Shown here one piece after another: positions 5,879 through 32,182 of a DNA stretch of 36,242 bases. The stretch lies in assembly GCA_040755775.1 (NCBI GenBank), contig JBFMAJ010000002.1, positions 1 through 36,242 of the forward strand, in the 5' to 3' direction. A model generated the notes under the pieces. That model made no database searches and was not told the DNA's origin. It was given only the letters and a program-made list of their open reading frames with translations. Position 1 is the stretch's first letter. Each line of letters starts with the position of its first letter. This DNA is from Nitrospirota bacterium (GTDB lineage Bacteria > Nitrospirota > Nitrospiria > JACQCE01). The position numbers and the translations under genes are program-made.

Positions 5879-6002
5879 AACTGGGAAAAAACCCTGACGG
5901 GTTGAAAGGAAAAAACACGAGGCTTTATCGGTTGCTTCACTGAGGGAGCCCTAGGGTGAATTCCCTACAAGAAAGAGCCCAAATTATAGCTACCGCTCAC
6001 CC

Positions 6003-6026
6003 GGGTGTCAAGACACACTGACACCC
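6003..6026. promoter_or_regulatory. 8-bp inverted repeat in the divergent luxR/pilZ control region (possible operator or hairpin)
   Basis: GGGTGTCA (6003-6010) and TGACACCC (6019-6026) with an 8-nt loop, followed by CCCCTTTTGA. It lies in the 265-bp gap between the two divergent genes. Confidence 0.25.
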
Positions 6027-10561: not shown

Positions 10562-11953
10562 ATGATTCGAATCTTCAACCGATACGTGCCCATCAAATAC
10601 ATCGTCATCCTTCTGCTCGAGCTCCTGCTGCTCCTGGGCACCGGGTATCTTGCTGTGGGCATTCGGTTTACCCTCGACTCGTTTCAGATTGACAGTTTCC
10701 CGGCGCTGTTCGGCAAGCTCTTTCTGATTACGGTCATCTGCCAGGTGTGCCTCGCGTACAACCGCCTCTACACCGAATTGGTGCCGGCCGCGGGGATTCT
10801 CTATGCGCGACTGTACCAGTCGTTTGCCGTGGCCTGGGGCTTTTTGTTCATTCTCTATTTTTTGCTCCCCGGGCTCGAGATCGGCCGCGGCATCTTCCTG
10901 CTCCATATCACGCTGAGTCCGCTCTGCCTTGGCCTCTTTCGAAAAACGATCGCCCGCCTGCTCACACAGGATAAATTTCGCAACAAAGTGCTGATCGTCG
11001 GCACCGGTCACCTTGCCAAGCTCGTCGGACGCCATCTGATGGCGCATCACGACCCGGGGTTCGAAGTCATCGGGTTTATTGATCAAGACCCCCAGCGGAT
11101 CGGCGCGCCGGTCATCAACCCCAAAGTCATCGGCACGCCCGACCAGATTCCAGACATCGTCAGGGACTACGACGTGAAAAAAGTCATCGTCGCGCTGCCC
11201 GAGCGGCGCGGGCAACTGCCGCTCACCCCGCTGTTGGCCTGCAAGGTCAGCGGGGTGGAGGTGCTCGACGGATTGTCGTTTTATGAGCGATTAACCGGGA
11301 AAATCCTGGTCGAGGGGCTCAATCCGGGGTGGCTGATTTTTTCCGAGGGGTTTACACGCCAGCAGCTGACCATGTTCATCAAACGGATCGTCGACCTGCT
11401 GAGCGCCTCGATCGGTCTGCTCGTCACCGCCCCGCTCCTCGTGCTGCTGGCCGCGCTCATTAAACTGGATTCACCGGGGCCCGTCCTCTATCGGCAGCAC
11501 CGGGTGGGTGAAGGGCAGCGGCGTTTCACCGTCATCAAGCTGCGCTCCATGCACGAGCAGGCTGAATCCGACGGGAAACCGATCTGGGCCGCCGCCGACG
11601 ACTCCAGAACGACGCGCATCGGTTACTACCTGAGAAAACTCCGGCTGGACGAGCTGCCGCAAATGATCAACGTGCTCCGCGGCGAGATGACGTTTGTGGG
11701 GCCCAGACCCGAGCGGCCCGAGTTCGTGGCGATGCTCAGCGAGAAAATCCCCTACTACAATCTTCGGCACACCGTGAAACCCGGGATCACCGGATGGGCG
11801 CAGGTGCGCTATCGTTACGGCTCCTCCATCGAGGATGCCATCGAGAAGATGCATCTCGATCTGTATTACATCAAGAATCTTTCTCTCGGACTCGATCTGC
11901 TCGTCTTGCTTGAAACCGTCAAGATCGTACTGCTGGGAAAGGGGGCACGCTGA
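10562..11953 (+). CDS. Initiating polyprenyl-phosphate sugar-phosphate transferase (WbaP/EpsB-type bacterial sugar transferase)
   Basis: N-terminal TM helices and a central Rossmann-like segment (VLIVGTGHLA). C-terminal Bac_transf domain: KRIVDLLSASIGLL...PGPVLYRQHRVG...KLRSM...DELPQMINVLRGEMTFVGPRPERPEF...KPGITGWAQV. Confidence 0.92.
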   Translation: MIRIFNRYVPIKYIVILLLELLLLLGTGYLAVGIRFTLDSFQIDSFPALFGKLFLITVICQVCLAYNRLYTELVPAAGILYARLYQSFAVAWGFLFILYFLLPGLEIGRGIFLLHITLSPLCLGLFRKTIARLLTQDKFRNKVLIVGTGHLAKLVGRHLMAHHDPGFEVIGFIDQDPQRIGAPVINPKVIGTPDQIPDIVRDYDVKKVIVALPERRGQLPLTPLLACKVSGVEVLDGLSFYERLTGKILVEGLNPGWLIFSEGFTRQQLTMFIKRIVDLLSASIGLLVTAPLLVLLAALIKLDSPGPVLYRQHRVGEGQRRFTVIKLRSMHEQAESDGKPIWAAADDSRTTRIGYYLRKLRLDELPQMINVLRGEMTFVGPRPERPEFVAMLSEKIPYYNLRHTVKPGITGWAQVRYRYGSSIEDAIEKMHLDLYYIKNLSLGLDLLVLLETVKIVLLGKGAR

Positions 11954-11981
11954 CCCAGCGGACAGCCGGGCGTGGCGCTCC

Positions 11982-13178
<1,197 letters not shown>

Positions 13179-14087
13179 ATGACGAAGCGTCGACGCCACA
13201 CCGAAGCCCCACGCGCAATGCATATCACACGCACGATTGAGGGACAGATGGACACACCGACTCAGCCATCGAATGGTCTCGGTTCACAGACATGGGAGTA
13301 CCTGTCGTATATCGGCGTCGCGGCGCTTCCGCCGCGAACCAGCCCTTTCGATCCGGGATACGACCCGCTGACGGTGGAACATCACTTGGCGCAAAGCGCG
13401 CACCTGATGTCAGCGCTCAAGCTGTCCATGGCCTGCTGGCAAGTGGCGAACGAGGAGGCCACGCGACGCAAAATCTCGGCGGCTCAGCGATGCCGTGTGC
13501 CCGTCTGCACCGGAGGAGGGCCGTATGAAATCGCCTCGGCGCTTGGGGCCCTCCCGCAGTATCTCGACCTGTGCGCCAAGCTCGGCGTGACCCGCGTGGA
13601 GGCCGGGGCGGGTTTCACCGAGCAACAGCTCGAACCGGCGGAGGTCGTTCGCATGGCGCGGTCGCGGGGCTTGGAAGTGCAGTTTGAGATCGGGGACAAG
13701 CACGCCGGAGCCTTCACGGACGAAACCGTGCAGCAGCTGGTGGACCAGGGCCGGCGATGGCTGGATGCCGGGGCCGTGAAGATCGTGGTGGAAGCGAGGG
13801 AAAGCGCCAACGACGTCGGGTTGTTCAACGCCCGCGGCGAGTTCAACGGACGCTTTGCGGAGCGGCTGGCACGGGCTTATGGCATGGAGGCCACGGTGTT
13901 TGAGGCCCCGAACAAAGCCAGTCAGTTTGCCCTGCTCACCCACTTCGGCCCCGATGTTCAGCTCGGCAATGTGCGTCTCGAGGAGCTGCTTCGGGTCGAG
14001 ATCTACCGGCGAGGCCTGCACTCCGACGCCTTTCGACACCAACACCTGCGGCCGCGGGGGCCTGCCGCCCGAAAGGCGAACGGGTAG
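13179..14087 (+). CDS. comA: (2R)-phospho-3-sulfolactate synthase family protein (ComA-like)
   Basis: Collinear with methanogen ComA as I remember it: VVEARESANDVGLFNARGEF matches IIEGRESGKGKGLFDKEG, and VFEAPNKASQFALLTHFGPDVQLGNV...LRVEIYRRGLHSDAF matches VIFEAPQKSQQVAFILKFG..VNLANI...SLETLRRGLRGDTF. The upstream DPG...LKLSMACW block corresponds to DKG...VKFGWGTS. Start uncertain (13179, 13218 or 13248). Confidence 0.82.
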   Translation: MTKRRRHTEAPRAMHITRTIEGQMDTPTQPSNGLGSQTWEYLSYIGVAALPPRTSPFDPGYDPLTVEHHLAQSAHLMSALKLSMACWQVANEEATRRKISAAQRCRVPVCTGGGPYEIASALGALPQYLDLCAKLGVTRVEAGAGFTEQQLEPAEVVRMARSRGLEVQFEIGDKHAGAFTDETVQQLVDQGRRWLDAGAVKIVVEARESANDVGLFNARGEFNGRFAERLARAYGMEATVFEAPNKASQFALLTHFGPDVQLGNVRLEELLRVEIYRRGLHSDAFRHQHLRPRGPAARKANG

Positions 14088-14092
14088 GGCCG

Positions 14093-14833
14093 ATGCCGGG
14101 ACACGTTGTCATCGATTGCTTTCCGGAAAGCGCGCAGCGTTATGGCGCCGGGTACGCGGTCGTGGTCGTGGATGTCATCCGCGCCACGACCACGGCGGTC
14201 ACGGCGGCGCATCAGGGCCGACGGGTGTTTCCGGCAAAGAGCACTGACGATGCGCAGGCCATCGCCTCCAGGCTCACGAATCCGCTGTTGGTCGGGGAAC
14301 TCGGCGGACATATGCCGTATGGCTTTGACATGACCAACAGTCCCGCTCAGCTCTCGGCGCGGCGGGACACGGACCGGCCCATTGTGCTCGTCTCGTCGTC
14401 CGGCATCCAGCTGCTGCTCAATGCCGCCGGGTGCGACGCCGTCTTTGTCGCCTGTTTTCGCAACCTGTCCGCGGTCGCCCGCCTGCTTGACGGACAGTAT
14501 GAGCGGATCGCCCTGCTCGGCGCCGGCACGCGCGGACAGTTCCGGCGGGAAGATCAAATGGGATGCGCGTGGATTGCCGAAAAATTACTCCAGCGCGGGT
14601 ATGGGGTCGGATCCGAGCAGACGCTTGCCTGCATGACGCAATGGCACGGCGCCAGCCCCGACGCCGTGCGGTGGGGAAGGAGCGCCGACTACCTGGAACG
14701 GACCGGCCAGCGGGAGGATCTTGATTTTATTCTGAAGCATATTGACGACCTCGACATCGTCCCGATGCTCAAGGCGGGCGAGCTCATCACGGCCGGGTCG
14801 ACCATCACATCGTCACGGAACACCGGCCGATGA
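14093..14833 (+). CDS. comB: 2-phosphosulfolactate phosphatase family protein (ComB-like)
   Basis: Family hallmark VVVVDVIRATTTAVTA near the N-terminus, then LVGELGG...GFDMTNSPAQL. Starts 5 nt after the comA-like stop. Confidence 0.82.
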   Translation: MPGHVVIDCFPESAQRYGAGYAVVVVDVIRATTTAVTAAHQGRRVFPAKSTDDAQAIASRLTNPLLVGELGGHMPYGFDMTNSPAQLSARRDTDRPIVLVSSSGIQLLLNAAGCDAVFVACFRNLSAVARLLDGQYERIALLGAGTRGQFRREDQMGCAWIAEKLLQRGYGVGSEQTLACMTQWHGASPDAVRWGRSADYLERTGQREDLDFILKHIDDLDIVPMLKAGELITAGSTITSSRNTGR

Positions 14834-16062
14834 GGATCCCGAAGACCAGCACACCGGTCGTCGTCATCGAATGCCTGCTGGGCGGCCTGGCGATCATGCG
14901 CAGCCTCGGGCCGCACGGCATTTCGCTTGTCGGGATCGATGCCGACCGTTGGGCGCCGGGACGGCTCTCCCGCTATTGCCGCGCCGGCGTCTCCCTCCGG
15001 CTGGCGCAGGACCGCAAGCCGGAGTTTCTCGAGCAGCTCCTTCGCGTGGGGCGGCGACTCGGGCAGCCGGCCCTGCTGATCCCCACATCGGACGAAACAT
15101 CGGAGTTTGTCGCCGAGCACGCCGCCGCGCTGGACGGCCCATTTCTCTTCCCCAAAGTCCCGGCGAAGATCGTGACACAACTGGCCAGCAAGAAGGAGAT
15201 GTACGGCCTGGCGCGACGGCATGGGATCCCGACACCCCACACCATCTTCCCATCGACTCTCGATGAGGTGCGGTCGTACGCGGCGCAGGCCACCTACCCC
15301 GTCATGCTCAAGGGCATCTACGGCAATCGCTTGCAGTCGCGCAACCACAAAAAGATGGTCATCGTGCGCTCCCCCGAGGAACTCATCAGCCACTACCGCA
15401 GGATGGAGGACCCCGAAGTCCCGAACCTGATGCTCCAGGAATACATCCCGGGCGGCGACGATCAGATTTACATCTTCAACGGCTACTTTAATCACCAATC
15501 GGAGTGCGTGCTCGGCATGACCGGGCGCAAGCTGCGTCAGTTTCGCATCCACACCGGGTGCGCGTCGCTGGGGGAATGCCGGTGGTATCCCGACGTGGCC
15601 AAACTCACGACGGAACTGATGAAAGCCGTCGGATATCGCGGCATTCTGGACATCGGCTATCGATTCGACGCTCGCGACGGACAGTACAAGGTGCTGGATA
15701 TCAACCCGCGTGTCGGTCAAGCCTACCGGCTCTTTGTCACGGAGGACGATTGTGACGTGGTGAAAGCCCTTTACCTCGACCTCACGGGGCAACCGGTCTG
15801 CTCCGGTCGACCCAGAGAGGGGCGGCGGTGGCTCATCGAGGATTTCGACGCCATTTCAAGCTATCACTATTGGCGTGAGGGCACGTTGACCCCCGGGCAG
15901 TGGCTGCGATCATTTCGCGGCGTCGAGGAAGCGGCCTGGTTTTCCTGGAAGGATCCCGTTCCATTCCTGGTCATGGCGGCCGGCTTCATGAAAAAGATGC
16001 TGACGTGGTCGCTGAAACACGCGGGGCTGTCACGGACGAAGGGGTCCGGTGACACACACTGA
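14830..16062 (+). CDS. ATP-grasp ligase 1 (carboxylate-amine ligase type)
   Basis: ATP-grasp core: YPVMLKGIYGN, LMLQEYIPGGDDQIYIFNGYF, GILDIGYRFDARDGQYKVLDINPRVG. ATGA overlap with comB-like. Paralogous in layout to the 19708..20988 product. Confidence 0.8.
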   Translation: MRIPKTSTPVVVIECLLGGLAIMRSLGPHGISLVGIDADRWAPGRLSRYCRAGVSLRLAQDRKPEFLEQLLRVGRRLGQPALLIPTSDETSEFVAEHAAALDGPFLFPKVPAKIVTQLASKKEMYGLARRHGIPTPHTIFPSTLDEVRSYAAQATYPVMLKGIYGNRLQSRNHKKMVIVRSPEELISHYRRMEDPEVPNLMLQEYIPGGDDQIYIFNGYFNHQSECVLGMTGRKLRQFRIHTGCASLGECRWYPDVAKLTTELMKAVGYRGILDIGYRFDARDGQYKVLDINPRVGQAYRLFVTEDDCDVVKALYLDLTGQPVCSGRPREGRRWLIEDFDAISSYHYWREGTLTPGQWLRSFRGVEEAAWFSWKDPVPFLVMAAGFMKKMLTWSLKHAGLSRTKGSGDTH

Positions 16063-17197
16063 TCAGCTCAGGCAGGACGGCATTCTCCGTCACATGGCCC
16101 AACTGGACGGCCTCCGTGCCATCGCCGTGCTCGCGGTGTTTGCAGACCACTGGCTCCCCGGCGCCTACCGATTGGGGGTGGCATGGGGTGAGTCAGGCGT
16201 GGATTTGTTCTTCGTGCTCAGCGGCTTTCTGATCACCGGCATTTTGCTCACCTGTCGCCGTTACGTTGACGAGGCCGGCCAAAGCGTCTTGACCACCGCC
16301 AAACAATTCTACATTCGTCGGACCCTGAGAATCTGGCCCCTGTATTTCGGAGTGCTGCTCCTTTATATGGTGGCCGCGCAGGATCCGACGAACTGGCTCA
16401 GCCCTTGGCTGTGGACATTCACGCTGAATTTTTATCGGACGTTTGTCGAACCGACGTGGGGCGGTCCCATGTCCCATTTTTGGTCACTGGCCGTCGAAGA
16501 GCAATTCTACCTTGTCTGGCCATGGGTCATTCTGCTCACGCCTCGGCGTTATCTCCTGCCGGTGCTTATTGGGGCCGTGCTCATCGGACCGTTGACGAAA
16601 ATTATGATGGCCCTGGTCGGTTACCACGAGCGGGCCATCAGATTTTTCACGCTTTCCTGCCTCGATACCCTGGCGTTCGGCGGGCTGCTGGCCTATTTCT
16701 CCCACCTGGCAGGGGTGGAGCGTATCGCGAACAGCCGTGTCGTCGCATGGCTGGGCCCGTTGAGCCTGCTGCTATTGGGAGCCGGGTTGGTCCTTCGCCT
16801 CAACAGTGAGGCCCCGTTGGAACGCATGGCGCTGTTCATGAGCGCGAAAACCCTATTCCTTGGCTGGATCGTTATCAAAGCGGCGCATGGTTTCCGCGGA
16901 GCCGTGGGCTTCGTGCTGTCAGCGCGCCCCGTCATGTATATTGGCAAAATCAGCTTCGGACTCTACTTGTTGTCCAAACCATTGGCCGCGCTGGTTGAAC
17001 GAATGGGACTGCCGGTTGAGGATATTCACCCGCTGGTGGTTTTTTCGCTGTACTCTGCGCTGTCCGTGGGAGCGGCGACGCTGTCGTGGAACTATTTTGA
17101 AGCACCGATCAACAGACTCAAACGGCACTTCCCCTATCACGTCGACTCGACAGCCCGCAAGCCGTCCGTTGATACGGCCTCCCAATCGATCAGATAA
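16049..17197 (+). CDS. Membrane acyltransferase family 3 (O-acyl/acetyltransferase)
   Basis: LDGLRAIAVLAVFADHW and FFVLSGFLITGIL, HFWSLAVEEQFYLVWP, roughly 10 predicted TM helices. Confidence 0.85.
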   Translation: MTHTDQLRQDGILRHMAQLDGLRAIAVLAVFADHWLPGAYRLGVAWGESGVDLFFVLSGFLITGILLTCRRYVDEAGQSVLTTAKQFYIRRTLRIWPLYFGVLLLYMVAAQDPTNWLSPWLWTFTLNFYRTFVEPTWGGPMSHFWSLAVEEQFYLVWPWVILLTPRRYLLPVLIGAVLIGPLTKIMMALVGYHERAIRFFTLSCLDTLAFGGLLAYFSHLAGVERIANSRVVAWLGPLSLLLLGAGLVLRLNSEAPLERMALFMSAKTLFLGWIVIKAAHGFRGAVGFVLSARPVMYIGKISFGLYLLSKPLAALVERMGLPVEDIHPLVVFSLYSALSVGAATLSWNYFEAPINRLKRHFPYHVDSTARKPSVDTASQSIR

Positions 17198-17201
17198 GCC
17201 G

Positions 17202-18536
17202 ATGGAGCTCGAGATGAGAACCGGGGTCTGGTACCATGATCGGCCGTTTACTGTCACGTTTCCAGACGCATGGGAGGTGACGGCCCACTGGCCGGCCACA
17301 CCGCCGCCGCTCACGGATGAGCAGATACGTGAGCGGATGCATCATCCCACCGGACAGCCCCCATTGCGTGAACTGGCCCGAACGGCACGACGGCCTATCG
17401 TCATCGTCGATGACCTCTCCCGACCCACGCCCGTTTCCGCCATTTTTCCCCATGTGCTTGAAGAGTTTTACGCCGCCGGCATCGCTCCCGACCGCGTCAC
17501 CGTGCTGGTGGCCACCGGGACGCACGGCCCGCAACACGCGGCCGCGCTGGCGCGAAAGCTCGGCCCTGACGCCACACAGCGCTGCCACGTTCAGATTCAC
17601 CATGACCGTCGGCACACGTCAACGATCGGCCGAACCTCGTTTGGCACACCGGTGGCCGTCAATCGCGCGCTCTTGCAGTGCGACCTGGCGGTGGGGATCA
17701 GCGGCATCTACCCGCAGGACACGACAGGATTCGGCGGCGGAGCAAAACTGGCGCTCGGCGTGCTGGGCCGCCGGACAATTACGCACATGCACTACACGCA
17801 TGAAGGCGTCGGCGGCAGCTACAACATCGACAATGATTTCCGTCGAGACATCACAGAAATCTGCCGGATGATTCGTCTCAACACGATCTATACCCTGCAC
17901 ATTAACGCCAGACAAGAGGTTGTGAACCTGACCTGCGGTGATCACTATACCTATTATGCCGAAGCGGCGGCATTTTCGAAATCCAGATATACCGCCCCGC
18001 CGCCGACTGACGCTGACGTTGTCATCGCCAATACCTACCCCTCGGACGTCTCCTACACCTTCATGCGCAAAGGCATGAAGGTCATCTATGGCGCGCCGGT
18101 GGCGGCCACCCGCATCGTGATTGGATCACATCATGAGGGGATCGGCCGACACGGCCTGTTTCCACAGGGGAAGAGCGCCCGCTATCTTCGCGTCAAGGAG
18201 CTCTACGCTCGAGCGCTGATCAGCCGCCCTTCCGCGCTGCCAGGAAAAATCGTCAAACGACTCTTCGCCAGCGCCGCACCGCGGCCACAGCCATCTGTCA
18301 CTGGCGCCACCCGCGCCATGGCACCACGTCCGATTTGGCTCTATCGACCCGAAGGGTCCAATGCGGTGTTGCCGCGACTTCCGGGGATTCATCAAACCAC
18401 CGATTGGCAACGCATCATCACCGCCATCGAGCGAGAGCAATCGGCCAAACAAAACCTCCGTGTCATGGTCTACCCGTGCGCGTCATTGCAGTGTGTTGAC
18501 TTTGCCGGTGCGGCTGTCGGCGCAGGGGTGGAGTAA
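17202..18536 (+). CDS. LarA-like protein (lactate racemase N-terminal domain/DUF2088 family; nickel-pincer-dependent 2-hydroxyacid racemase/epimerase superfamily)
   Basis: IVIVDDLSRPTP, VLVATGTHGPQ and GIYPQDTTGFGGGAKLALGVLGRRTITHMH match LarA blocks (SSDHTRPVP, LVATGFHRPS, GFIESHFFAGFSGGRK...ANH, recalled from memory). Start set at the ATG at 17202, 4 nt after the upstream stop. The listed 558-aa ORF's first 114 aa overlap the acyltransferase gene. Confidence 0.72.
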   Translation: MELEMRTGVWYHDRPFTVTFPDAWEVTAHWPATPPPLTDEQIRERMHHPTGQPPLRELARTARRPIVIVDDLSRPTPVSAIFPHVLEEFYAAGIAPDRVTVLVATGTHGPQHAAALARKLGPDATQRCHVQIHHDRRHTSTIGRTSFGTPVAVNRALLQCDLAVGISGIYPQDTTGFGGGAKLALGVLGRRTITHMHYTHEGVGGSYNIDNDFRRDITEICRMIRLNTIYTLHINARQEVVNLTCGDHYTYYAEAAAFSKSRYTAPPPTDADVVIANTYPSDVSYTFMRKGMKVIYGAPVAATRIVIGSHHEGIGRHGLFPQGKSARYLRVKELYARALISRPSALPGKIVKRLFASAAPRPQPSVTGATRAMAPRPIWLYRPEGSNAVLPRLPGIHQTTDWQRIITAIEREQSAKQNLRVMVYPCASLQCVDFAGAAVGAGVE

Positions 18537-18539
18537 CCC

Positions 18540-19715
18540 ATGACCTTGGCCGTTACACTGCTGCGGTGGACCACTCGAGTGAAGAAATTGCTCCAGTCAC
18601 GCTTGCGGGGAGCGCGACAAGTGTACGTCCATCATCGGGTGGCAGAATATCGCCGAATGTGGCAGGCCGTGGCTGACGCCCTGGGCGCCCAGTTCGTGAT
18701 GCTCGCGGATAACCTCTGGGAACTAAAGCTTGGCGGCCGGTCAACGCGCATCGCAAATGACATCATGGAGTTTGATAATCCGGTCATCCTTGAGTTGGCA
18801 GGAATGAAGCCGATCGTCTATCAGCTGCTTCGTGAGCACAACCTTCGAGTTCCGGAGCATCGAGTGTTCGACCTGGATGCCTTGCCCGCGGCGTATGATT
18901 TCCTGGCGCGACATCCGGAAGGGTGTGCGGTAAAACCCGCCAACGGCACCTCTTCCGGCGTCGGGGTCTCGACGCACTTGCAGACGGCCGCGGAGGTCCG
19001 TCGCGCAGCCGTCCTCGCCTCGCTCTACGACCGTGACATCCTTATTGAGCAAATGATTGCCGGTGAGTGCTACCGTGTATTGGTGCTCAACGGCACGGTG
19101 GTCCACGCCGTCTGCAGACGGGGCATCCGCCTCCTGGGTGACGGGGCATCGACCATTGCGCAGCTCCTCGATGCGGAGAGTGCCCGCCGCCTAGCCGCTG
19201 GCGTCCCAGGCCTCTTCGCGGACCGCGACAGCGCGCTCACCCTGAACGCGCAGGGCCTTACACTGGCCTCGGTACCGGAGGCGGGGCGCACACTCCTCGT
19301 CAAGAGCGTCGGAACGGTTCACGGTGCCGGTCAGACCGCTGAGGTGCGGACGGTGTACTCGGAGGACGTCACCGATCATATCTGCCCCGCCGTACGGCTC
19401 GCGGCTGAACAGGCGGCCGGGATCATCGGATCGAATCTGCTCGGCGTTGACTTCATCCTGCTGGATCCATCCTCGCCGCTTGAGCAGACGGGGGGCGTTA
19501 TCAATGAAGTCAACACCACGCCGGGGATGCATCACCATTACGACAGTCAGCGCGAGCGTTTTCCTCAAGCCGCACTGCAAGCCGCACGCGTGCTGCTCGG
19601 TCTCAGCGCCGAATCGGAGCGCGGGAAGCCGCATACTCGCGCGGATGCGGATCCATCAACCGCGTCCGGTCGACTGGTCTCCAACTGCAGGGAAGGCAGA
19701 CTCGCTGATGTGTGA
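18540..19715 (+). CDS. ATP-grasp ligase 2, cyanophycin-synthetase N-terminal-domain-like
   Basis: LLREHNLRVPEH...CAVKPANGTSSGVGVS...LIEQMIAGECYRVLVLNGTVVHAVCRR...LLGDGASTIAQLL...GLTLASVPEAGRTLLV...GVDFILLDPSSPL...GVINEVNTTPGM parallels the CphA ATP-grasp module (IKP.DGNHGRG, RVLVVNGK.VA, GDG.STI.ELI, GID...PDIS.PL, I.EVNAAPG). Confidence 0.8.
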   Translation: MTLAVTLLRWTTRVKKLLQSRLRGARQVYVHHRVAEYRRMWQAVADALGAQFVMLADNLWELKLGGRSTRIANDIMEFDNPVILELAGMKPIVYQLLREHNLRVPEHRVFDLDALPAAYDFLARHPEGCAVKPANGTSSGVGVSTHLQTAAEVRRAAVLASLYDRDILIEQMIAGECYRVLVLNGTVVHAVCRRGIRLLGDGASTIAQLLDAESARRLAAGVPGLFADRDSALTLNAQGLTLASVPEAGRTLLVKSVGTVHGAGQTAEVRTVYSEDVTDHICPAVRLAAEQAAGIIGSNLLGVDFILLDPSSPLEQTGGVINEVNTTPGMHHHYDSQRERFPQAALQAARVLLGLSAESERGKPHTRADADPSTASGRLVSNCREGRLADV

Positions 19716-20988
19716 TGTGCTCGTCACCGGAGCCGAGTCCCGCCAAGGGCTCGTGGTGATTCGATCATTGGGCCGCCGTGGCCTTCGTCTGTTTGTCACG
19801 GGAGACCGTCCGCGCAGCTTGGGTTTTTATTCCAAGTACATTCACCGCCATGCGCTGACGGCATCCCCCGAGCACCACAATAAACTGTTTGTCGATGAAG
19901 TGCTCGGGTTGGCTCAACGACACCGCATCCCGTACATTTTTCCGGTGACCGAAACAAGCCTCATCGCGCTCGATGAGCGCCGCGATGAGGTGGATGCCAT
20001 TTCGAAGTTGCTGGCGCCGCCTTCCTCGGCGATTCGAGCCGGCGTCGACAAACAGCGCACTCTGGCCATTGCCGAACAGGTTGGCGTGCCCATCACCAAA
20101 ACGTTATACCCCCGAGGAATAGAGGAGGCCGACGCAACCGCCGCGCAATGGGGCTATCCCGTGATCTTCAAGCCCCGCGGCCGTGCCAATGACAGCCGCA
20201 TCGGCGGGAAGTTTGATTTTAAAATCCGTTATGCGCACAACCGCACACAGCTCCACAGCATTCTCGAAGACTGCGCCGACGGCGTCTTTCCCATGATGCA
20301 GGAATACGCGTACGGCGGCCACACGCAAGTGGTGTGCTTCATGGAACCGCAGCGCGCGCACTCGTGGTTTCAGGATGACGCCGTCAGAATGCTGCCGCTG
20401 ACCGGCGGAGTGGGCACCCGGATGCAAAGCCGTCCGGTTGATCCCCTGCTGGCGGAATACTCCGGCCGAATCTTCGCTGCCATGCGCATGGAAGGCTGCG
20501 CCCAGGCCCAGTTTAAAGGCCCCGACGCTGACGGTCGATACCGGTTCCTGGAGGTTTCCGTTCGTCTGCCGGCGTCGGTCGGCAGCGCAGTCTATTCCGG
20601 CATCGATTACCCCTGGCAGCAGTACTGCTACTTTTCGGGACAACCGGTCGCACCTATCGACCGATATCGGCTTTCGCAGCCAACCCGTTGGCTCCGCGGT
20701 GATACGATCTCCGTGTGGCAATATCTTCTGGACGAAACACCCCGCTCCGGCGATACTTTGCCATCCAAACCACGGATATTTTGGGGCTGGCTTGTTGATT
20801 TCGTCAGACCCCGACTACGCCATTACGTGGAAGTCCCCACTGACCCGAAACCCGCCCTCCAGGAACTCCGCGAGCTGTTTCGCGAATTGGCCGTTCTGTT
20901 CGGCCGCAAGGCGCTCCAGCGGCTCCCCATCCTCCGAACGGTCGAGCGGGCGTTGACTCCACATCGCGCCGCACGGGGGAGATTATGA
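19708..20988 (+). CDS. ATP-grasp ligase 3 (paralog-type of ligase 1)
   Basis: VLVTGAESRQGLVVIRSLGRRG, WGYPVIFKPRG, PMMQEYAYGGHTQVVCF, RMEGCAQAQFKGPDADGRYRFLEVSVRLP. Start set at the ATG at 19708 (8-nt overlap with the upstream stop). Confidence 0.78.
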   Translation: MCDVLVTGAESRQGLVVIRSLGRRGLRLFVTGDRPRSLGFYSKYIHRHALTASPEHHNKLFVDEVLGLAQRHRIPYIFPVTETSLIALDERRDEVDAISKLLAPPSSAIRAGVDKQRTLAIAEQVGVPITKTLYPRGIEEADATAAQWGYPVIFKPRGRANDSRIGGKFDFKIRYAHNRTQLHSILEDCADGVFPMMQEYAYGGHTQVVCFMEPQRAHSWFQDDAVRMLPLTGGVGTRMQSRPVDPLLAEYSGRIFAAMRMEGCAQAQFKGPDADGRYRFLEVSVRLPASVGSAVYSGIDYPWQQYCYFSGQPVAPIDRYRLSQPTRWLRGDTISVWQYLLDETPRSGDTLPSKPRIFWGWLVDFVRPRLRHYVEVPTDPKPALQELRELFRELAVLFGRKALQRLPILRTVERALTPHRAARGRL

Positions 20989-23510
20989 CGCCAGCCGCTT
21001 CCATCCCTCGGGCGGCGAGGCCGACTTACGCCCCTCACGTATCGGCGAACCGCGTGATGCTGTTGGTGTCCTACCATTTCCCTCCGAGCTCAGAAGTCGG
21101 GGGCTTGCGGACCGTGCACCTAGCCACCCATTTGCCTGAGCACGGCTGGCAGGTGGAAGTGCTGACGATCGCGACGCGTCATGTGGAAAACCAGGACCCC
21201 GAGCGCCTGCGCGGGCTCGACAACATCCCAGTGCATCGAGCGTCGAAATGGCCCACCCTCCTCGATCTCTACGCGTCTGTCAAACGCGCCCTGACGTCCC
21301 GTCTTGACATTTCACGACACGGTCGGGCGCGACCATCTGCCTCGGCGACGCGGACGCCAAAAGAGTCGATCGGGGCCAGGCTCCGACGATATATTTTGTC
21401 ACTGCTCTCTCTGCCGGACGGCTACCGTAGCTGGGTGATTCCGGCCACTCTTACAGCGCTCAAACTGTGCCGGATGCGCCGCTATGACTGCGTCATGACC
21501 ACCTCGCCGCCGAATTCCAGCCACCTCATCGGCCTTCTGCTCACGTTGTGCACGGGTATCAAGTGGATCGCGGACTTTCGTGATCCCTGGATGACTGGGG
21601 GGAGCAAGAGCTTGTTCGAGACGTCCGCCCTTTCGCTCGCGCTCGAGCGCCGGCTCGAACGGCTCGTTCTGCGTCATGCTCACCTGGTCACCGCCAATAC
21701 CGCGCCGCTTGCTGAATTGCTCCATGGCGCACAGCCCCCTGATCGGCGTCATGACAATCTCTATATCCCGAATGCCATTGATTGGACGCGCTACACATCC
21801 TACCGCCAGCGTGCAAAGCGCGAAATGTTTACGCTGACCTACGCGGGGTCGCTCTATTATGGGCGCTCACCCCAGCCAATTTTTCAAGCAGTCCGCGAAC
21901 TAGCCGCAGAGGGGAAAGTTTCGCTTGACCGCCTCCGGATCATGCTCGTCGGGGACTGCGCCGATATCGGAGGCCAGCCGATATCCGACGTCACCACGGG
22001 GTACGGGCTAGCGGCGGTGGTCGAGGCTGTCCCGACCGTGCCCTACACTGCGGCCCTGGAGTTCATCGCGCGCAGTCATGTGGCGCTACTCTTTGCACCC
22101 AATCAGCCGTATCAGCTGCCGGCGAAAATCTACGATTATATGGGCTTGGGGGTGCCAATTCTTGCCATCGCCGGTCCTGGCGTGACGGAGCAGGTGTTGA
22201 GAGAGACCAACACCGGCGCGGCGTTCGAGCCGTCGAATATCAGCGGCATCAAGAGCTACATCGCTAATGCGTACGCGGATTTTTCGCATCGCACAAACCG
22301 CAGTCTCGGGGCACGCGGGCTTGATCGATTCGAGGCCGCACGGATAGCCCAATCGTTGTCGGAACGGCTCAACGAGCTCTACCAGCCGCCGCGCACCGGA
22401 CTGGAACTCCCTTCTCCTAAGCGACCCCCACGGCCACCGCTAGTGAAGCCCATGATCCAACTCACGGTCTCCAATCATCCTGGCCCCGATTGGTCAGCGT
22501 GGCTCACGCGGCTCAATGGCAATCTCTATCACAGCGCCGCCTGGGCCGAATCATGCCGGACCGCGCACAAGCATCCGATCTATTTCCACTGGGAGGACGA
22601 GCAGGCGAGGTGCGTCGGCGCGGCCGTCGGCATCGCCAGCCGGTCGCCTCGCCCCGTCATCGGTCGATTTTCACGACGGCTCGATTTTGAAACCTATCCC
22701 GCCGCCGGCGACAGGGCCGACCTCGCGCTCCAGATGATGGCCGACCTCGCCCGCCACGCGAGCCTGACGGGCCATCGCGCGCTCTCGATTCACTCCTATC
22801 TCGCTACTGGCCCGGTGGCCGGGCTTGAGCGGCTGGGGCTGTCGCTGTCGCCGCGCATTGAGTTTGCCGTCGATCTCACGCGCTCGCCCGATGCATTGTG
22901 GCAGGCGCTGAGCGCGCACCACCGACGCAAGATCAAGAAAGCCGGCCGACTCGGACTGACTCTGGTGGAGGCCGATTCCATGGAGGCCTTGCGGCAGTTT
23001 CGCGCCCTACAAGTTGCCTCGCGCGAACGCCGTCGCAGCCGCGGTGAAGAGATCGGCATGCTCGATGATCTCTACTACGAAGAGAAGGGGCGGCGTTACT
23101 TTGGACGGAACCTCGGCCGGCTCTGCCTCATGCTCCACCGCGGCACGCCGGTCTCCGCCGCATTCATCGCCCTGTACGGCGGGCAGGCGCTCTACGTGCA
23201 CGGCGGCAGCAGTGATGAGGGCTTCCGCATGAACGCCCCGGCGCTTCTGTTCTGGGAAGCGTTTCTCCAATACCGCACACGCGGCTGCGATCGCTTCAAT
23301 CTTGGCGGCGTGCCCGCGGATGCCGCCGACCCCCAATCGCCTTCGCACGGACTCTACCGATTCAAGGCGGGATTTGGCGGGCGGGAGCTCGCCCTGGCCG
23401 ACTGTACCACCGAAGGCTCGGGATTGCGGACCCGCTGGCTCCTGCAGTCGGCGAAAGCGCTCCTCCGGTCGGGCGGGACGTCGAGGCGCTTGGAGGTCCC
23501 GCTGACATGA
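20985..23510 (+). CDS. Fusion protein: N-terminal GT4 glycosyltransferase + C-terminal FemAB-related (PEP-CTERM-system-associated type) aminoacyl/acyl-transferase domain
   Basis: N-terminal half: VMLLVSYHFPPSSEVGGLRTVHLATHL...LPAKIYDYMGLGVPILAI (GT-B/GT4). Pro-rich linker YQPPRTGLELPSPKRPPRPPLVKP (about 22381-22451). Then an in-frame Met and a FemAB/Acetyltransf_6-like domain (WAESCRTAHK...HHRRKIKKAGRLGLTLVEA...GLYRFKAGFGG). No stop codon in frame across the junction. Confidence 0.78.
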   Translation: MTPAASIPRAARPTYAPHVSANRVMLLVSYHFPPSSEVGGLRTVHLATHLPEHGWQVEVLTIATRHVENQDPERLRGLDNIPVHRASKWPTLLDLYASVKRALTSRLDISRHGRARPSASATRTPKESIGARLRRYILSLLSLPDGYRSWVIPATLTALKLCRMRRYDCVMTTSPPNSSHLIGLLLTLCTGIKWIADFRDPWMTGGSKSLFETSALSLALERRLERLVLRHAHLVTANTAPLAELLHGAQPPDRRHDNLYIPNAIDWTRYTSYRQRAKREMFTLTYAGSLYYGRSPQPIFQAVRELAAEGKVSLDRLRIMLVGDCADIGGQPISDVTTGYGLAAVVEAVPTVPYTAALEFIARSHVALLFAPNQPYQLPAKIYDYMGLGVPILAIAGPGVTEQVLRETNTGAAFEPSNISGIKSYIANAYADFSHRTNRSLGARGLDRFEAARIAQSLSERLNELYQPPRTGLELPSPKRPPRPPLVKPMIQLTVSNHPGPDWSAWLTRLNGNLYHSAAWAESCRTAHKHPIYFHWEDEQARCVGAAVGIASRSPRPVIGRFSRRLDFETYPAAGDRADLALQMMADLARHASLTGHRALSIHSYLATGPVAGLERLGLSLSPRIEFAVDLTRSPDALWQALSAHHRRKIKKAGRLGLTLVEADSMEALRQFRALQVASRERRRSRGEEIGMLDDLYYEEKGRRYFGRNLGRLCLMLHRGTPVSAAFIALYGGQALYVHGGSSDEGFRMNAPALLFWEAFLQYRTRGCDRFNLGGVPADAADPQSPSHGLYRFKAGFGGRELALADCTTEGSGLRTRWLLQSAKALLRSGGTSRRLEVPLT

Positions 23511-27779: not shown

Positions 27780-29262
27780 TCTTCAGCGCCTGTCCAAACA
27801 TTCCGTCATTTACGGCATCGGTAGCGTGCTGAATAAATCGCTCGGCTTTCTGATGCTGCCGATTTACACCCGTTATCTCATGCCGGAGGATTACGGTCTG
27901 TTGGAATTGTTGCTCTTGACGAGCGCGGTCGCCAGCACCTTCCTGGCGCTCGGACTGAGCCAGGCCACGCTGCGCTTTTATTTTGAATACGACCACCCGG
28001 AGCAGCGCATGGAAGTCATCAGCACCGGCTTGTGGGTCAGCCTGGTCTCGACGTTGGCCGGCCTGGCCTGTATCGCGGTGTTTGCCGATGACATCTCCAG
28101 GCTGACCTTCGGCACGGCGGAGTACGAGTTGCTGCTCTGGATCATCTTGGCGACAACGTTTTTTGAAGTCACGATGGAAGTTCCCATGTCGTATTTACGC
28201 GCACGCGAATATTCCAAGCTGTTCACCGCGGCCAACCTGTTCCAACTGCTGATCGGACTCAGCATGAATCTCTACTGGGTCGTGTGGCGGCAGCAGGGGG
28301 TCGAGGGGGTCCTCAAGAGCGGGCTCACCAGTGCCGCGGTCACGTGGCTGGCGTTGCTGGTGTATACGACCCGCCAAGTCGGCCTTCGATGGTCGTATCT
28401 GAAGGCCAGGGAGCTCTTGGTGTACGGGGCTCCGCTGATTTTCAGCGGATTCGGCATGTTCATCATGAAAATTTCCAACCGCTTGTTTCTCAACCACTAT
28501 TCGTCCCTCACTCAGGTCGGACTTTTCTCCCTTGGCGATAAGCTGAGCCGGGCACTGGGCTTCCTGATCCTGGGACCGTTTTGGCGGTCCTATGGTCCGT
28601 TCCGTTTTTCGATCATGAAGCAGCCTAATGCCGCGCAGATCTACTCCAGGGTCCTGACCTATTTTTTGTTTGTCATGATATTTCTCGGCACAGGGCTGGC
28701 CATGATGGCGAAGGAAGTGCTGCAGATCATCGCGGCGCCTCCATTCTGGGGGGCGGCCAATGTCGTGCCGTTATTGGTGGTGGCCAAAATCTGGTATGGC
28801 CTCTACTACCTCACGCAAACGGGCATTTATTTACAGAAAAAAACTCGCGTGATCTCTGTCATCATCACCGTCACGGCCTCCGTCAATCTGCTGCTCAACT
28901 GGCTCCTGATTCAACGCTACGGCGTGATGGGGGCGGCCGTGGCCTCGGTCGGGTCATTCGCCTTCCTGGCGGTGGTAACCCACCGGGTCGCACAATGGCT
29001 GTATCCCATCACCTATGAAGTCCGTCGGATCGTCACCATGGTCGCCGTCGCGGCGGGGATGTATGCGGCGGGGATATGGATCGCCCCGTCGTCCGTGTGG
29101 CTCGCGTTGGGGCTGAAGGCCGCCCTGCTGGCCGGCTTCCCCCTGCTGCTGGGCGTGGCGCACTTCTATACGGAAGAGGAGAAAACACGGCTCCGGTCGC
29201 TCTGGCTCATGGGTGTCGAACGGGTGAGCGCCACACTGTCGAACGTGTTCAGCTACCGATGA
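27769..29262 (+). CDS. wzx: Wzx-type oligosaccharide flippase (MOP superfamily polysaccharide biosynthesis protein)
   Basis: KHSVIYGIGSVLNKSLGFLMLPIYTRYL N-terminus, about 14 TM helices, LLNWLLIQRYGVMGAAVAS. Start set at the ATG at 27769 (11-nt overlap with the upstream gene). Confidence 0.85.
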   Translation: MYRDLQRLSKHSVIYGIGSVLNKSLGFLMLPIYTRYLMPEDYGLLELLLLTSAVASTFLALGLSQATLRFYFEYDHPEQRMEVISTGLWVSLVSTLAGLACIAVFADDISRLTFGTAEYELLLWIILATTFFEVTMEVPMSYLRAREYSKLFTAANLFQLLIGLSMNLYWVVWRQQGVEGVLKSGLTSAAVTWLALLVYTTRQVGLRWSYLKARELLVYGAPLIFSGFGMFIMKISNRLFLNHYSSLTQVGLFSLGDKLSRALGFLILGPFWRSYGPFRFSIMKQPNAAQIYSRVLTYFLFVMIFLGTGLAMMAKEVLQIIAAPPFWGAANVVPLLVVAKIWYGLYYLTQTGIYLQKKTRVISVIITVTASVNLLLNWLLIQRYGVMGAAVASVGSFAFLAVVTHRVAQWLYPITYEVRRIVTMVAVAAGMYAAGIWIAPSSVWLALGLKAALLAGFPLLLGVAHFYTEEEKTRLRSLWLMGVERVSATLSNVFSYR

Positions 29263-30305
29263 TCCCATTGATGCCATTGCTCTTCTCGGCCGGAAAACAG
29301 CACCTGGCGGCCTCGCTGCTGTCCGGGACGGGATTGTTGAACGTGGCGCGTTTCGTCAGGCGGCGCGCCTCGCGGGGCTTGACCATTTTCGCCTACCATC
29401 GCGTGTTGACGCACCTGCCGAGCGCGTTTTCGTTCGATCCGGAAGTCGTCAGCGCATTCGCCGATGACTTCGAGCGGCAGGCCCGCCACATTCAGCGGCA
29501 TTGCACCCCGATGACCTTCGCAGAGGTCCGGGAGCTCGAGGACGCCGGCCGGCCGTTTCCGCCGCATGCCGTGATTCTCACATTTGACGACGGCTACAAG
29601 GATAACGCCACCGTCGTGGCGCCCATTCTCAAGCGGTGCGGCATTCCGGCGACGTTTTTCATCACGACCGGCTATCTGACGGATCGACGGTTATTTTGGT
29701 GGGACGAAGCGGCCAACATCATCTGGAAGTGCGCCCTGCCGCTGCCGCCGTTGCCCGAGTTCGGACTCGACGCGCGGGCGTTGGCGTCGATGGCGGACCG
29801 GCCGTCCATCATTCGGGCCGTGCTGCGGCGCTGCCACCAGCTTCCCGACGACCAGCGCGTCGACCTCATCCGCCGGTTGGCCGCGCTCACGGGAGTGCAT
29901 CCCGATCATGGAGCGGCCGACGCGGAGCTGCTCACCTGGGAGGACGTCGCAGCGATGGCCGAGGACGGCTTTGAAATCGGCAGCCACACGGTGACCCATC
30001 CGGTCCTCACCCGCGTCGATGCGGCCCGGCAGGACGCCGAGTTGACGGACTCAAAGCGAATACTGGAACAGCGCCTGAACCGGCGCATCGAGGTCTTCGC
30101 CTACCCGGTCGGGGCCATGCACTGTGTCAGTGAAGCGCTCGCCGCGCGGGTCAAGGCCGCCGGGTACCGCTACGCCGTGACCTATATCGGCGGGACCAAC
30201 CAGGCCATCGGCAATCCGTACGCACTACGGCGCCAGCACGTCGGATTGGACACCACAGGGCCGACGTTCCAGGCGAGCCTGGTCTTCCCGGAGCTGTTTC
30301 AATGA
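29259..30305 (+). CDS. Polysaccharide deacetylase family protein (NodB homology domain, long form)
   Basis: VILTFDDGYKDN, IPATFFITTGY, FEIGSHTVTHPVL. Start set at the ATG at 29259 (ATGA overlap). Confidence 0.85.
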   Translation: MIPLMPLLFSAGKQHLAASLLSGTGLLNVARFVRRRASRGLTIFAYHRVLTHLPSAFSFDPEVVSAFADDFERQARHIQRHCTPMTFAEVRELEDAGRPFPPHAVILTFDDGYKDNATVVAPILKRCGIPATFFITTGYLTDRRLFWWDEAANIIWKCALPLPPLPEFGLDARALASMADRPSIIRAVLRRCHQLPDDQRVDLIRRLAALTGVHPDHGAADAELLTWEDVAAMAEDGFEIGSHTVTHPVLTRVDAARQDAELTDSKRILEQRLNRRIEVFAYPVGAMHCVSEALAARVKAAGYRYAVTYIGGTNQAIGNPYALRRQHVGLDTTGPTFQASLVFPELFQ

Positions 30306-31528: not shown

Positions 31529-32182
31529 ATGCGTTCACTCAAGCAGTTGCTCAAATGCCTTCTCATCCGGCTTCTGCCGCTCCAGTTTGTCATGTGGAGG
31601 GGCCGTGACGCCTCCGGTCGGATCGCCCTCACGTTTGACGACGGGCCGGACCCGGAGTTGACCCCCGCCATTCTGGCCGTGCTGCGCCAGTACGGGGTCA
31701 AGGCCACGTTTTTTGTGCTGGGGGAAAAGGCCAGGACACACCCGGAATTAATCGAGCTCATCGCACGGGATGGACATGAAATCGGCAACCACAGCTTTTC
31801 GCACCAACCGATGAACGAGAGCACGCTGCCGTCCATGATCCGGGAGTTTTCCGCGACCGACCGGCTCATTCATCATCACACCGGGCGACCGGCGCCGCTG
31901 ATCCGCCCCCCCCGAGGGATCATGACACTGCCCTTTCTCTGGTATGCGTTGACGCATCGCCGGACCGTCGTGCTCTGGTCCGTCGACCCGCAGGATTATC
32001 ATCCTCAGGCCTCGGAGCTGTTGCTGGAGAGAATCCTCCAACAGCTTGGATCGTCGTCGGACATCGTCCTGCTTCACGAGCGCCACCGGCAAACAGTCGA
32101 GCTGCTGCCGCCGTTGCTTGACGTGCTGACGGCCCGTCGGGCGCAGTGCGTGACCGTGAGTCGTCTGATGGAGGCGGCATGA
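31529..32182 (+). CDS. CE4 polysaccharide deacetylase (canonical NodB domain)
   Basis: IALTFDDGPDPELTP, KATFFVLG, HEIGNHSFSH, LIRPPRG, IVLLHE. Confidence 0.9.
   Translation: MRSLKQLLKCLLIRLLPLQFVMWRGRDASGRIALTFDDGPDPELTPAILAVLRQYGVKATFFVLGEKARTHPELIELIARDGHEIGNHSFSHQPMNESTLPSMIREFSATDRLIHHHTGRPAPLIRPPRGIMTLPFLWYALTHRRTVVLWSVDPQDYHPQASELLLERILQQLGSSSDIVLLHERHRQTVELLPPLLDVLTARRAQCVTVSRLMEAA

Follow-up and report, generated by a model that had tools for sequence, protein, structure and literature searches.

The described systems closest to the locus considered here are the first two steps of coenzyme M (CoM) synthesis in methanogens and the YitD/YitC pair of Bacillus subtilis spores, both of which draw on the ComA and ComB families. 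Members of these two families, adjacent and in the same order, are encoded in a 36,242-nucleotide stretch of DNA from a Nitrospirota bacterium (GenBank assembly GCA_040755775.1, contig JBFMAJ010000002.1; hereafter, the window), where they open a block of seven genes within an exopolysaccharide (EPS) locus. The active-site residues of ComA are common to the window protein and the described systems, and (R)-sulfolactate is the expected product. The window cassette departs from the CoM pathway, however, in lacking ComC, ComD and ComE, in residing in non-methanogenic bacteria and in belonging to a distinct subfamily, and it differs from both the CoM and the spore systems in that ComA and ComB are coupled to an ATP-grasp ligase (AG1) inside polysaccharide loci; we know of neither the coupling nor the setting for sulfolactate made towards CoM or in spores. 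In ATP-grasp catalysis, an acyl phosphate is formed and then captured by an amine, and the decoration of envelope glycans by enzymes of this type is known in principle. AG1 has the same fold and the same glycan-locus setting as the Enterococcus D-aspartate ligase and the Campylobacter jejuni capsule glucuronamide ligase and the same expected chemistry, with an acyl phosphate followed by an amide bond. Here we report with high confidence that ComA, ComB and AG1 form a real and widespread cassette, and we propose that it is a conserved glycan-decoration cassette that amide-links sulfolactate to a glycan amine, a reading to which we give about even chances.

The seven genes of the block are as follows:
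13179 or 13248..14087, + strand: ComA-type (2R)-phospho-3-sulfolactate synthase (PF02679); the database gene call starts at 13248 and gives 279 aa
14093..14833, + strand: ComB-type 2-phosphosulfolactate phosphatase (PF04029)
14830..16062, + strand: AG1, a three-domain ATP-grasp ligase (weak Pfam matches; AlphaFold2/Foldseek fold)
16049..17197, + strand: Acyl_transf_3 membrane O-acyltransferase (PF01757, 90 bits)
17202..18536, + strand: LarA-like putative nickel-pincer-nucleotide (NPN) enzyme (Lar_N, 132.5 bits)
18540..19715, + strand: AG2, an ATP-grasp ligase resembling the G domain of cyanophycin synthetase (CphA) (NF010623, TIGR03103)
19708..20988, + strand: AG3, an ATP-grasp paralog of AG1, with its true start at ATG 19708

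All seven are intact open reading frames (ORFs), tightly packed between 13179 and 20988 as an earlier note on this DNA had described them, and the families that the note had assigned to them hold against Pfam and NCBIfam profiles and, for AG1, in a fold search. Consecutive genes are spaced, from ComA on, by +5, -4, -14, +4, +3, -8 and -4 nt, the ATGA start of AG1 overlapping the ComB stop. The long ORF of the LarA-like gene begins at 16860 and overlaps the preceding gene, its likely start being the ATG at 17202. A terminator scan revealed no terminator-like sites between genes inside the block, to which Rfam and tRNA scans added nothing.

A pattern scan in which each GTDB species was represented by one genome detected close relatives of the window ComA in 301 species genomes. 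The loci of the best 80 of these genomes, together with six obtained from exact look-ups, make up 86 ComA-anchored loci that were compared through tblastn searches with every window protein. Carriers among the best 80 belong to the Nitrospirota, Acidobacteriota/Terriglobia, Desulfobacterota, Zixibacteria, Ignavibacteria and Bacteroidota, and further to the Gemmatimonadota, Chloroflexi, Binatia, Gammaproteobacteria and Actinomycetota, for a total of more than ten phyla. ComA is matched in 86/86 loci, ComB in 85/86 and AG1 in 76/86, with AG1 (42–63% identity) usually following directly 3′ of ComB in the same orientation; of the ten loci in which AG1 is missing, some are short contigs, and three (L030, L035 and L058) truly lack it within the sequence examined. 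The recurrence of the ComA-ComB-AG1 arrangement in these 76 independent loci is far beyond chance, and its synteny across more than ten phyla therefore identifies the trio as a conserved functional unit. The remaining genes of the block are less frequent, with matches to the LarA-like protein in 23/86 loci, to AG2 in 28/86 and to Acyl_transf_3 in 5/86. Acyl_transf_3 orthologs in this position (50–53% identity) are found only in Nitrospira-type loci (L008, L013, L015, L017 and L087–L094), and the same is true of genuine AG3 orthologs (30–34%); AG3 matches at 20–28% in other loci were rejected as orthologs, most of them overlapping the AG1 gene and thus representing cross-matches to the paralog. 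The complete set of seven is found in L008, L013 and L015 and in several metagenome contigs, among them L087 and L094; L017 carries six, AG3 not being found nearby. The seven-gene form thus elaborates the trio within the Nitrospira lineage, and the window probably comes from a relative of that lineage. The survey proposed in the earlier note, which had treated the seven genes as a single module, hence upholds the trio as a strongly conserved core, but restricts the full set to Nitrospira, with the LarA-like protein and AG2 as optional members and Acyl_transf_3 and AG3 as Nitrospira-specific ones.

The assignment of the window ComA is well supported at the family level. The protein matches PF02679 over profile positions 16–243 of 243 (152.6 bits versus a cut-off of 25.2) and the Methanocaldococcus jannaschii ComA structure 1qwg with 99 bits. 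In the alignment to 1qwg, residues K137, E103, E133, E168, R170, E171, E205 and K209 of the M. jannaschii enzyme, the first of which we take to be catalytic, align to identical residues in the window protein, and these eight charged residues of the TIM barrel are invariant among 29 subfamily members, bearing out the conserved active site on which the earlier note had made its proposal depend. In the loci examined, ComA homologs from different phyla are 61–70% identical; the best database match reaches 73%, and nearly all of the 4897 relatives with E < 1e-10 come from metagenomes. ComB, which adjoins ComA in 85/86 loci, matches PF04029 with 139.2 bits (cut-off 26.4) and the PDB entry 2yyv with 71.5 bits. 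By strong homology, the ComA-type enzyme would add sulfite to phosphoenolpyruvate (PEP), giving (2R)-phospho-3-sulfolactate, and the ComB-type phosphatase would then release free (R)-sulfolactate; we consider it highly probable, on sequence grounds, that the cassette enzymes make this compound. Nothing in the surroundings points to continuation towards CoM. No ComC, ComD or ComE domain is present in any large window ORF, in agreement with the earlier note, nor is any domain of the bacterial Xcb proteins, and none of these genes is found among the annotated recurrent neighbour clusters, in a search that covered the window and these clusters.

At the level of equivalogs, both proteins fall short. 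The window ComA fails the archaeal TIGR03849 (143.9 bits versus a cut-off of 280) and ComB misses every NCBIfam equivalog cut-off (its best match gives 97 bits versus 235, and the lowest cut-off is 175), placing them in a distinct bacterial subfamily. These scores could also reflect divergence in substrate, with ComA using another nucleophile on PEP, or an enolpyruvyl sugar, to yield a product other than sulfolactate. An identity of about 28–31% to the characterized ComA enzymes on CoM plasmids and the presence of invariant subfamily-specific motifs, such as PFDPGYDP and SMACWQ, fit such a divergence, but all charged residues of the active-site barrel match M. jannaschii ComA and are invariant, and the ComB-family phosphatase found beside ComA (85/86) is what would be expected for a phospho-hydroxy-acid product. 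Divergence to a different product hence appears quite improbable.

A ComA homolog with 52.5% identity to the window protein is also found in cultured Streptomyces (L169, Streptomyces sp. NBC_00211 plasmid NZ_CP108119.1, 357027–357824). It sits in a cluster of nonribosomal peptide synthetase/polyketide synthase (NRPS/PKS) type on linear plasmids of six cultured strains, together with SbnA/SbnB-like genes, an ATP-grasp gene, an acyl carrier protein (ACP), ketosynthases and MbtH, and without an adjacent ComB. This cluster may make a sulfonated natural product, and it shows that ComA homologs of bacteria can serve pathways to small molecules.

The ligase that completes the trio matches no curated family. 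AG1 gives weak ATP-grasp Pfam matches, its sequence profile yields only marginal biotin-carboxylase matches in the PDB, and its 3861 homologs with E < 1e-5 are nameless or auto-labelled as "predicted ATP-grasp carboligase" or "D-aspartate ligase" (JGI). An AlphaFold2 model based on 44 homologs (pLDDT 87.2, pTM 0.87) matches biotin carboxylase, PurK, PurT and the L-amino-acid ligase 3vot with a Foldseek probability of 1.0, in a search that confirmed the fold but returned no specific functional relative. The three-domain ATP-grasp fold therefore establishes ATP-dependent carboxylate activation as the generic chemistry of AG1. As to its substrates, the only guide is gene linkage, which makes sulfolactate the probable acid; to our knowledge, a sulfonated 2-hydroxy acid acting as the acyl donor of an ATP-grasp enzyme would be unprecedented. 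The same linkage bears on an explanation in which ComA and ComB merely supply free sulfolactate, as in Bacillus spores or as a CoM precursor, and the ATP-grasp ligases act separately on peptide side chains of the EPS. In its favour, XrtA-type EPS loci often contain ATP-grasp and FemAB genes whether or not ComA is present, and L012 and L036 have extra AG1/AG3-like paralogs. However, the AG1 orthologs that follow ComB in 76/86 loci (42–63% identity) overlap it translationally, AG1 stays with ComA and ComB even in stand-alone cassettes, and ComC, ComD and ComE are absent from the window and from the annotated recurrent neighbour clusters. We consequently assign this separation of functions only a slim chance.

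The other two ligases of the block are accessory to the trio. AG2 scores 133–137 bits against cyanophycin synthetase profiles over positions 180–453 (NF010623, 137 bits, positions 181–453 of 871), 126 bits against the N-acetylglutaminylglutamine synthetase profile TIGR03103 and 81 bits against the CphA structure 7lgn. The CphA-like character attributed to AG2 in the earlier note thus applies to the ATP-grasp G domain but not to the rest of cyanophycin synthetase: CphA1 comprises N, G and M domains over some 870 aa, whereas AG2, with 391 aa, has neither the CphA N domain nor the Mur-ligase-like M domain. AG2 likewise shares the ATP-grasp domain of N-acetylglutaminylglutamine synthetase, but not its GNAT domain, and the absence of these three domains marks it as a single-function ligase. 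AG3 is 23% identical to AG1 over 356 aa (E 1e-14), and its matches to PRK12767 and PRK06849 are weak.

(2R)-Sulfolactate has the L configuration, through the same priority switch as in L-cysteine, and malate is its carboxylate analogue. The best structural relative by sequence of the LarA-like profile is Mar2 (6d6z, 178 bits), and the best NCBIfam match of the protein is to the malate racemase LarAH6 (NF052593), at 166 bits versus a cut-off of 500; it lies below every NCBIfam LarAH cut-off. With the malate racemases Mar1 and Mar2, it shares the Lar_N domain, the NPN lysine, the nickel-ligand histidine, the Asp/Arg residues and the first catalytic histidine (PMC7583248; PMC11770544). In an alignment of the window protein with 18 co-located orthologs (19 sequences, numbered after Lactiplantibacillus plantarum LarA), the equivalents of His108, Lys184, His200, Asp72, Arg75 and Lys298 are invariant, those of the NPN-binding residues Lys184, His200, Asp72 and Arg75 being K182, H197, D70/D71 and R74 of the LarA-like protein. 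It differs from the racemases of the LarA superfamily at the position of the second catalytic histidine, His174, which is Gln in the window (YPQDT) and Gln or Asn in 18/18 orthologs, at the equivalent of Gln295, an invariant Phe in this clade, and in its C-terminal region, which is not of the LarA type and ends in a conserved VYPCAxLQC motif.

These substitutions bear directly on the chemistry that can be proposed. The proton-coupled hydride-transfer mechanism of LarA needs both catalytic histidines (PMC11770544), and Gln/Asn at the His174 position thus does not fit the two-histidine racemase mechanism. Single-histidine LarA homologs have been described structurally and suggested to act unidirectionally or through different chemistry, and a His174-type base has been assigned to L substrates (PMC12611868). 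Placement of the LarA-like protein in the published single-histidine LarA_Sp/LarA_Bw subfamily was considered and rejected, on the basis of 68 bits to 9q2u versus 178 to Mar2. Because the (2R) acid is the L form and the His174-type base is absent, what is missing is exactly the base that would turn the ComB product from L to D by simple inversion. The inversion at C2 put forward in the earlier note may still occur, but with the second catalytic histidine gone it is not the default reading, and the sequence makes a plain racemase doubtful. We conclude that the LarA-like enzyme probably acts on sulfolactate or its adduct, "racemase" not being an established designation for it. The link to the cassette is tight. 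In a reciprocal scan, a profile built from the LarA-like proteins co-located with the cassette retrieved 80 loci from metagenome contigs (L087–L166; 40–57% identity). Thirty of these LarA-anchored loci span 12 kb or more, and 28 of the 30 have ComA/ComB no further than 10 kb away and normally adjacent, indicating that this LarA-like clade is essentially dedicated to the cassette. Among complete metagenome-assembled chromosomes with the cassette, CP070674.1 and CP070777.1 possess the LarA-like gene, and OY969786.1 shows none within 10 kb. Genes for larB, larC and larE are not present in the 36-kb window.

The genomic setting of the block is that of a polysaccharide locus. The + strand between 6.4 and 35.6 kb forms a single long array of polysaccharide-biosynthesis genes, in which a priming glycosyltransferase, a chain-length determinant, a tyrosine kinase, Wzy and Wzx are clustered, confirming the Wzx/Wzy EPS locus of the earlier note and pointing to the XrtA/PEP-CTERM type. 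The priming glycosyltransferase (TIGR03013, 471 bits versus a cut-off of 393) and the chain-length determinant (TIGR03007, 295 bits versus 279) lie upstream of the block, as does the tyrosine autokinase; Wzy is recognized through Wzy_C (64.7 bits) and Wzx as Polysacc_synt_3 (65.5 bits), and a PEP-CTERM-type outer-membrane protein gives a weak match. Neither exosortase XrtA nor PEP-CTERM substrate proteins were found among the scanned ORFs of the window, and they may be encoded elsewhere in the genome. The genes of the array that bear most closely on the block are the following:
11835..13178, + strand: WecB-type UDP-GlcNAc 2-epimerase (PF02350, 335.9 bits), whose stop abuts the ComA ORF
20985..23510, + strand: 841-aa fusion of a GT4-like glycosyltransferase and a FemAB-family aminoacyl transferase (Pfam Glyco_trans_4_4 and FemAB/Acetyltransf_6), directly downstream of the block
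29076..30305, + strand: CE4 polysaccharide deacetylase (PF01522, 91.6 bits), with relatives in 15/86 loci
31529..32182, + strand: second CE4 polysaccharide deacetylase (PF01522, 113.6 bits)

The true start of WecB is probably internal to its ORF. Other genes 3′ of the block encode a GNAT-like protein and two further glycosyltransferases, a GT4 enzyme and a GT4-GT2 fusion, and the flanks of the block agree with those given in the earlier note. The GT4-like part of the fusion directly downstream of the block also accompanies the cassette in other genomes, being detected by tblastn at 28–44% identity in 16/86 loci and as a cluster (c9) in 17/82 de-duplicated loci. In related loci, this GT4-like gene and a FemAB gene (c24) are separate neighbours, in that order, directly 3′ of AG2; the FemAB family, which makes up one half of the window fusion, consists of aminoacyl-tRNA-dependent transferases.

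A survey of gene context, based on clustering the ORFs of 82 de-duplicated loci, on crude ad hoc hidden Markov models (HMMs) and on Pfam spot checks, extends this setting to other carriers. Of the 60 loci that are 15 kb or longer, 45 contain three or more polysaccharide-synthesis genes; a gene for a CE4 deacetylase or a DegT aminotransferase lies within 10 kb in 40/61 loci, and a FemAB-like gene is found in 25/61. In Desulfobacterota and Nitrospirota, the gene order FemAB-DegT-deacetylase-AsnB-GT2-(WecB)-ComA-ComB-AG1-AG2-...-GT4-like recurs, while Bryobacterales and other Acidobacteriota feature a priming glycosyltransferase followed by DegT-CapD(4,6-dehydratase)-x-DegT-x-ComA-ComB-AG1, a block that reads as a pathway to an amino-dideoxy-hexose, continuing directly into the cassette. 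A third recurrent arrangement places a methyltransferase (MT) first, as MT-(LarA)-ComA-ComB-AG1, with the Wzx flippase then directly after AG1 in L037 and L038. An S-adenosylmethionine (SAM) methyltransferase lies at most two genes from the cassette in 34/80 loci. Two types can be told apart: c4, which precedes ComA or LarA in Acidobacteriota loci, and c15, which is NodS/Pse-methylase-like and overlaps the AG1 end; examples near the cassette are found in L066 (8982–9881), L007 (3243–4112, - strand) and L167 (11223–12137).

Several of these observations weigh against attachment of sulfolactate to a glycan. The frequent methyltransferase has no role in the proposed model, recognizable EPS genes are few in about a quarter of the long loci (as judged by crude HMMs), and two cassettes stand alone, EPS genes being absent for 10 kb around them: a 9.3-Mb contig (L167) carries ComA-AG2-ComB-AG1-MT, the AG2 identity of which was confirmed, and L040 has MT-LarA-ComA-ComB-AG1 between unrelated genes. 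To these must be added the scores of ComA and ComB under the equivalog cut-offs and the fact that the best 80 of the 301 genome matches are all metagenome-assembled genomes; a plasmid search for the trio in cultured strains returned none, yielding only distant AG1 relatives and the Streptomyces ComA, and in a look-up of cluster members for cultured carriers, the single named member was again a metagenome-assembled genome. Some of these features lend themselves to another explanation, according to which the product is a free small molecule, namely a sulfolactyl conjugate of an amino acid or short peptide that may be methylated and would serve as a compatible solute, signal or metabolite, and the position in EPS loci denotes co-regulation only. 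Besides the stand-alone cassettes, the nearby methyltransferases and the NRPS/PKS setting of the Streptomyces ComA, this explanation can draw on the likeness of AG2 (126 bits) to the ATP-grasp domain of N-acetylglutaminylglutamine synthetase, an enzyme that makes an osmolyte dipeptide. It is nevertheless opposed by the predominance of polysaccharide loci (45/60) among the long loci, by the embedding of the cassette in the same orientation as its glycosyltransferase, flippase and deacetylase neighbours and with overlapping frames, by trio-only loci that lack a second ligase and by the Wzx flippase directly following AG1 in L037 and L038. We hence regard a free small molecule as an unlikely outcome.

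The decoration of a glycan with sulfolactate, in contrast, is supported jointly by the conserved and invariant ComA residues, the Pfam scores, the syntenic AG1 with its ATP-grasp fold, the reciprocal linkage of the LarA-like clade and the glycan context, to which the distant AG1 relative in the Priestia operon described below belongs. In the proposed mechanism, AG1 would activate the carboxylate of the (R)-sulfolactate released by ComB as an acyl phosphate, as gene linkage and ATP-grasp chemistry suggest, and, as suggested by the context, would then join it through an amide bond to a free amine on the sugar-linked repeat unit as this grows. Candidate amines are those of a hexosamine exposed by a CE4 deacetylase, deacetylases being the source proposed in the earlier note, of an amino sugar made by DegT or of an amino acid added by FemAB. 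The product would be an exopolysaccharide, exported through Wzx/Wzy, that carries a permanently charged C-S sulfonate. In the window, this core would be elaborated by the single-histidine LarA-like NPN enzyme, acting on sulfolactate or its adduct, by AG2 and AG3, which from their context probably add amino acids, and by Acyl_transf_3 as an O-acyltransferase. Whether sulfolactate ends up on the EPS is, in our assessment, a question with the odds near balance. The broader proposal, a widespread class of EPS with sulfolactate amide-linked by a dedicated ComA-ComB-AG1 cassette and, in a subset, a new single-histidine LarA clade specialized on sulfolactate or its glycan adduct, is put forward more tentatively, at somewhat less than even chances.

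The sequence of events in this mechanism recalls the synthesis of mycothiol and bacillithiol, which follows a logic of glycosylation, deacetylation and ligation onto the GlcN amine thus set free. A GT4 glycosyltransferase, a deacetylase and an ATP-dependent ligase are common to the window, to many related loci and to an operon on a Priestia megaterium plasmid (NZ_CP137801.1; L170). The window differs from the thiol pathways in that its deacetylases are of the CE4 (NodB) type, its ligases are ATP-grasp rather than Cys-tRNA-synthetase-like enzymes and it would yield a polymer in place of a thiol cofactor. The Priestia operon encodes a PIG-L deacetylase, a GT4 glycosyltransferase, an AG1-like ATP-grasp protein (25% identity) and an APH-like kinase, and is surrounded by spore-coat and exosporium genes, a TauE/SafE sulfite exporter being encoded 9 kb off; it offers a cultured system in which to study the AG1-type ligase family. 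APH-like kinases adjoin ComA in L030 (640–2052) and L035, as well as the AG1-like ATP-grasp gene on Priestia plasmids (L170, 11179–12240), and their recurrence hints at a phosphorylation step linked to AG1-type ligases. In the window, a methyltransferase-APH-type kinase fusion (25995–27779) lies between Wzy and Wzx.

Other features of the window and of related loci can be noted. An alpha/alpha-toroid protein encoded at 23507–24709 of the window, with weak terpene-cyclase and pectate-lyase-like matches, is conserved unusually well (48–61% identity) in L017, L022, L027 and L031, and faintly in L005. A divergent gene for a LuxR-family regulator (5204–5878, - strand) at the 5′ border of the EPS array is preceded by a perfect sigma-70 consensus (TTGACA, 17-nt spacer, TATAAT; 5983–6011, - strand). 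In four loci of Proteobacteria and Binatia that lack the LarA-like gene (L045, L051, L057 and L065), an enolase-superfamily gene (L051, 12709–13929) and a conserved 305-aa gene lie directly 3′ of AG1. The enolase-superfamily gene was rejected as a substitute for LarA, its product being of the galactonate-dehydratase type (PRK14017, 279 bits; putative dehydratase 2poz, 508 bits) and not of the mandelate-racemase type. In L003 (15965–20852) and L168 (16403–21215), genes for a MaoC-dehydratase/SDR fusion, a protein of the arylamine-N-acetyltransferase family, an ACP, KAS III and FabD come after the cassette, which suggests an additional, ACP-borne fatty-acyl decoration in loci of this type. In the Terriglobia locus L062, a sulfotransferase of the Sulfotransfer_3 family (8696–9787) lies between AG1 and ComA, and this locus may combine sulfate-ester and sulfonate chemistry.

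The literature searched links sulfolactate neither to polysaccharides, nor to ATP-grasp ligases, nor to LarA, and the earlier note's view of the gene combination as undescribed still stands. Searches for sulfolactyl conjugates, for phosphosulfolactate synthase with exopolysaccharide and for sulfolactate with glycosyltransferase retrieved no relevant description, and the main papers on the LarA superfamily mention neither sulfonates nor polysaccharides. The cassette accordingly represents a new combination, with a predicted new product, of known kinds of enzyme. Bacterial glycans rarely carry sulfonated (C-S) groups. A study of sulfur metabolism in Acidobacteria treats only the degradation of sulfolactate, and the sulfolactate-degrading genes suyAB, slcC and comC have been reported in soils and sediments (PMC6018796).

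Should the proposed mechanism be correct, sulfolactyl decoration would confer a pH-independent negative charge on the EPS, with effects on metal binding, hydration, biofilm structure and recognition by phages or grazers in lineages that are abundant but uncultured, such as Nitrospira, Acidobacteriota and Desulfobacterota. The carriers belong mostly to uncultured phyla of soil, sediment and groundwater, and the cassette would provide a biosynthetic origin for the sulfolactate of soils and sediments, making EPS an overlooked source of environmental sulfolactate and organosulfonate. For the LarA clade that lacks one catalytic histidine, sulfolactate would be a concrete candidate substrate, in a nickel-pincer field where the function of single-histidine LarA proteins is a current question (PMC12611868). 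The model likewise proposes a testable role outside CoM synthesis for a large bacterial subfamily of ComA and ComB, and another for the thousands of members of an ATP-grasp family that lacks annotation.

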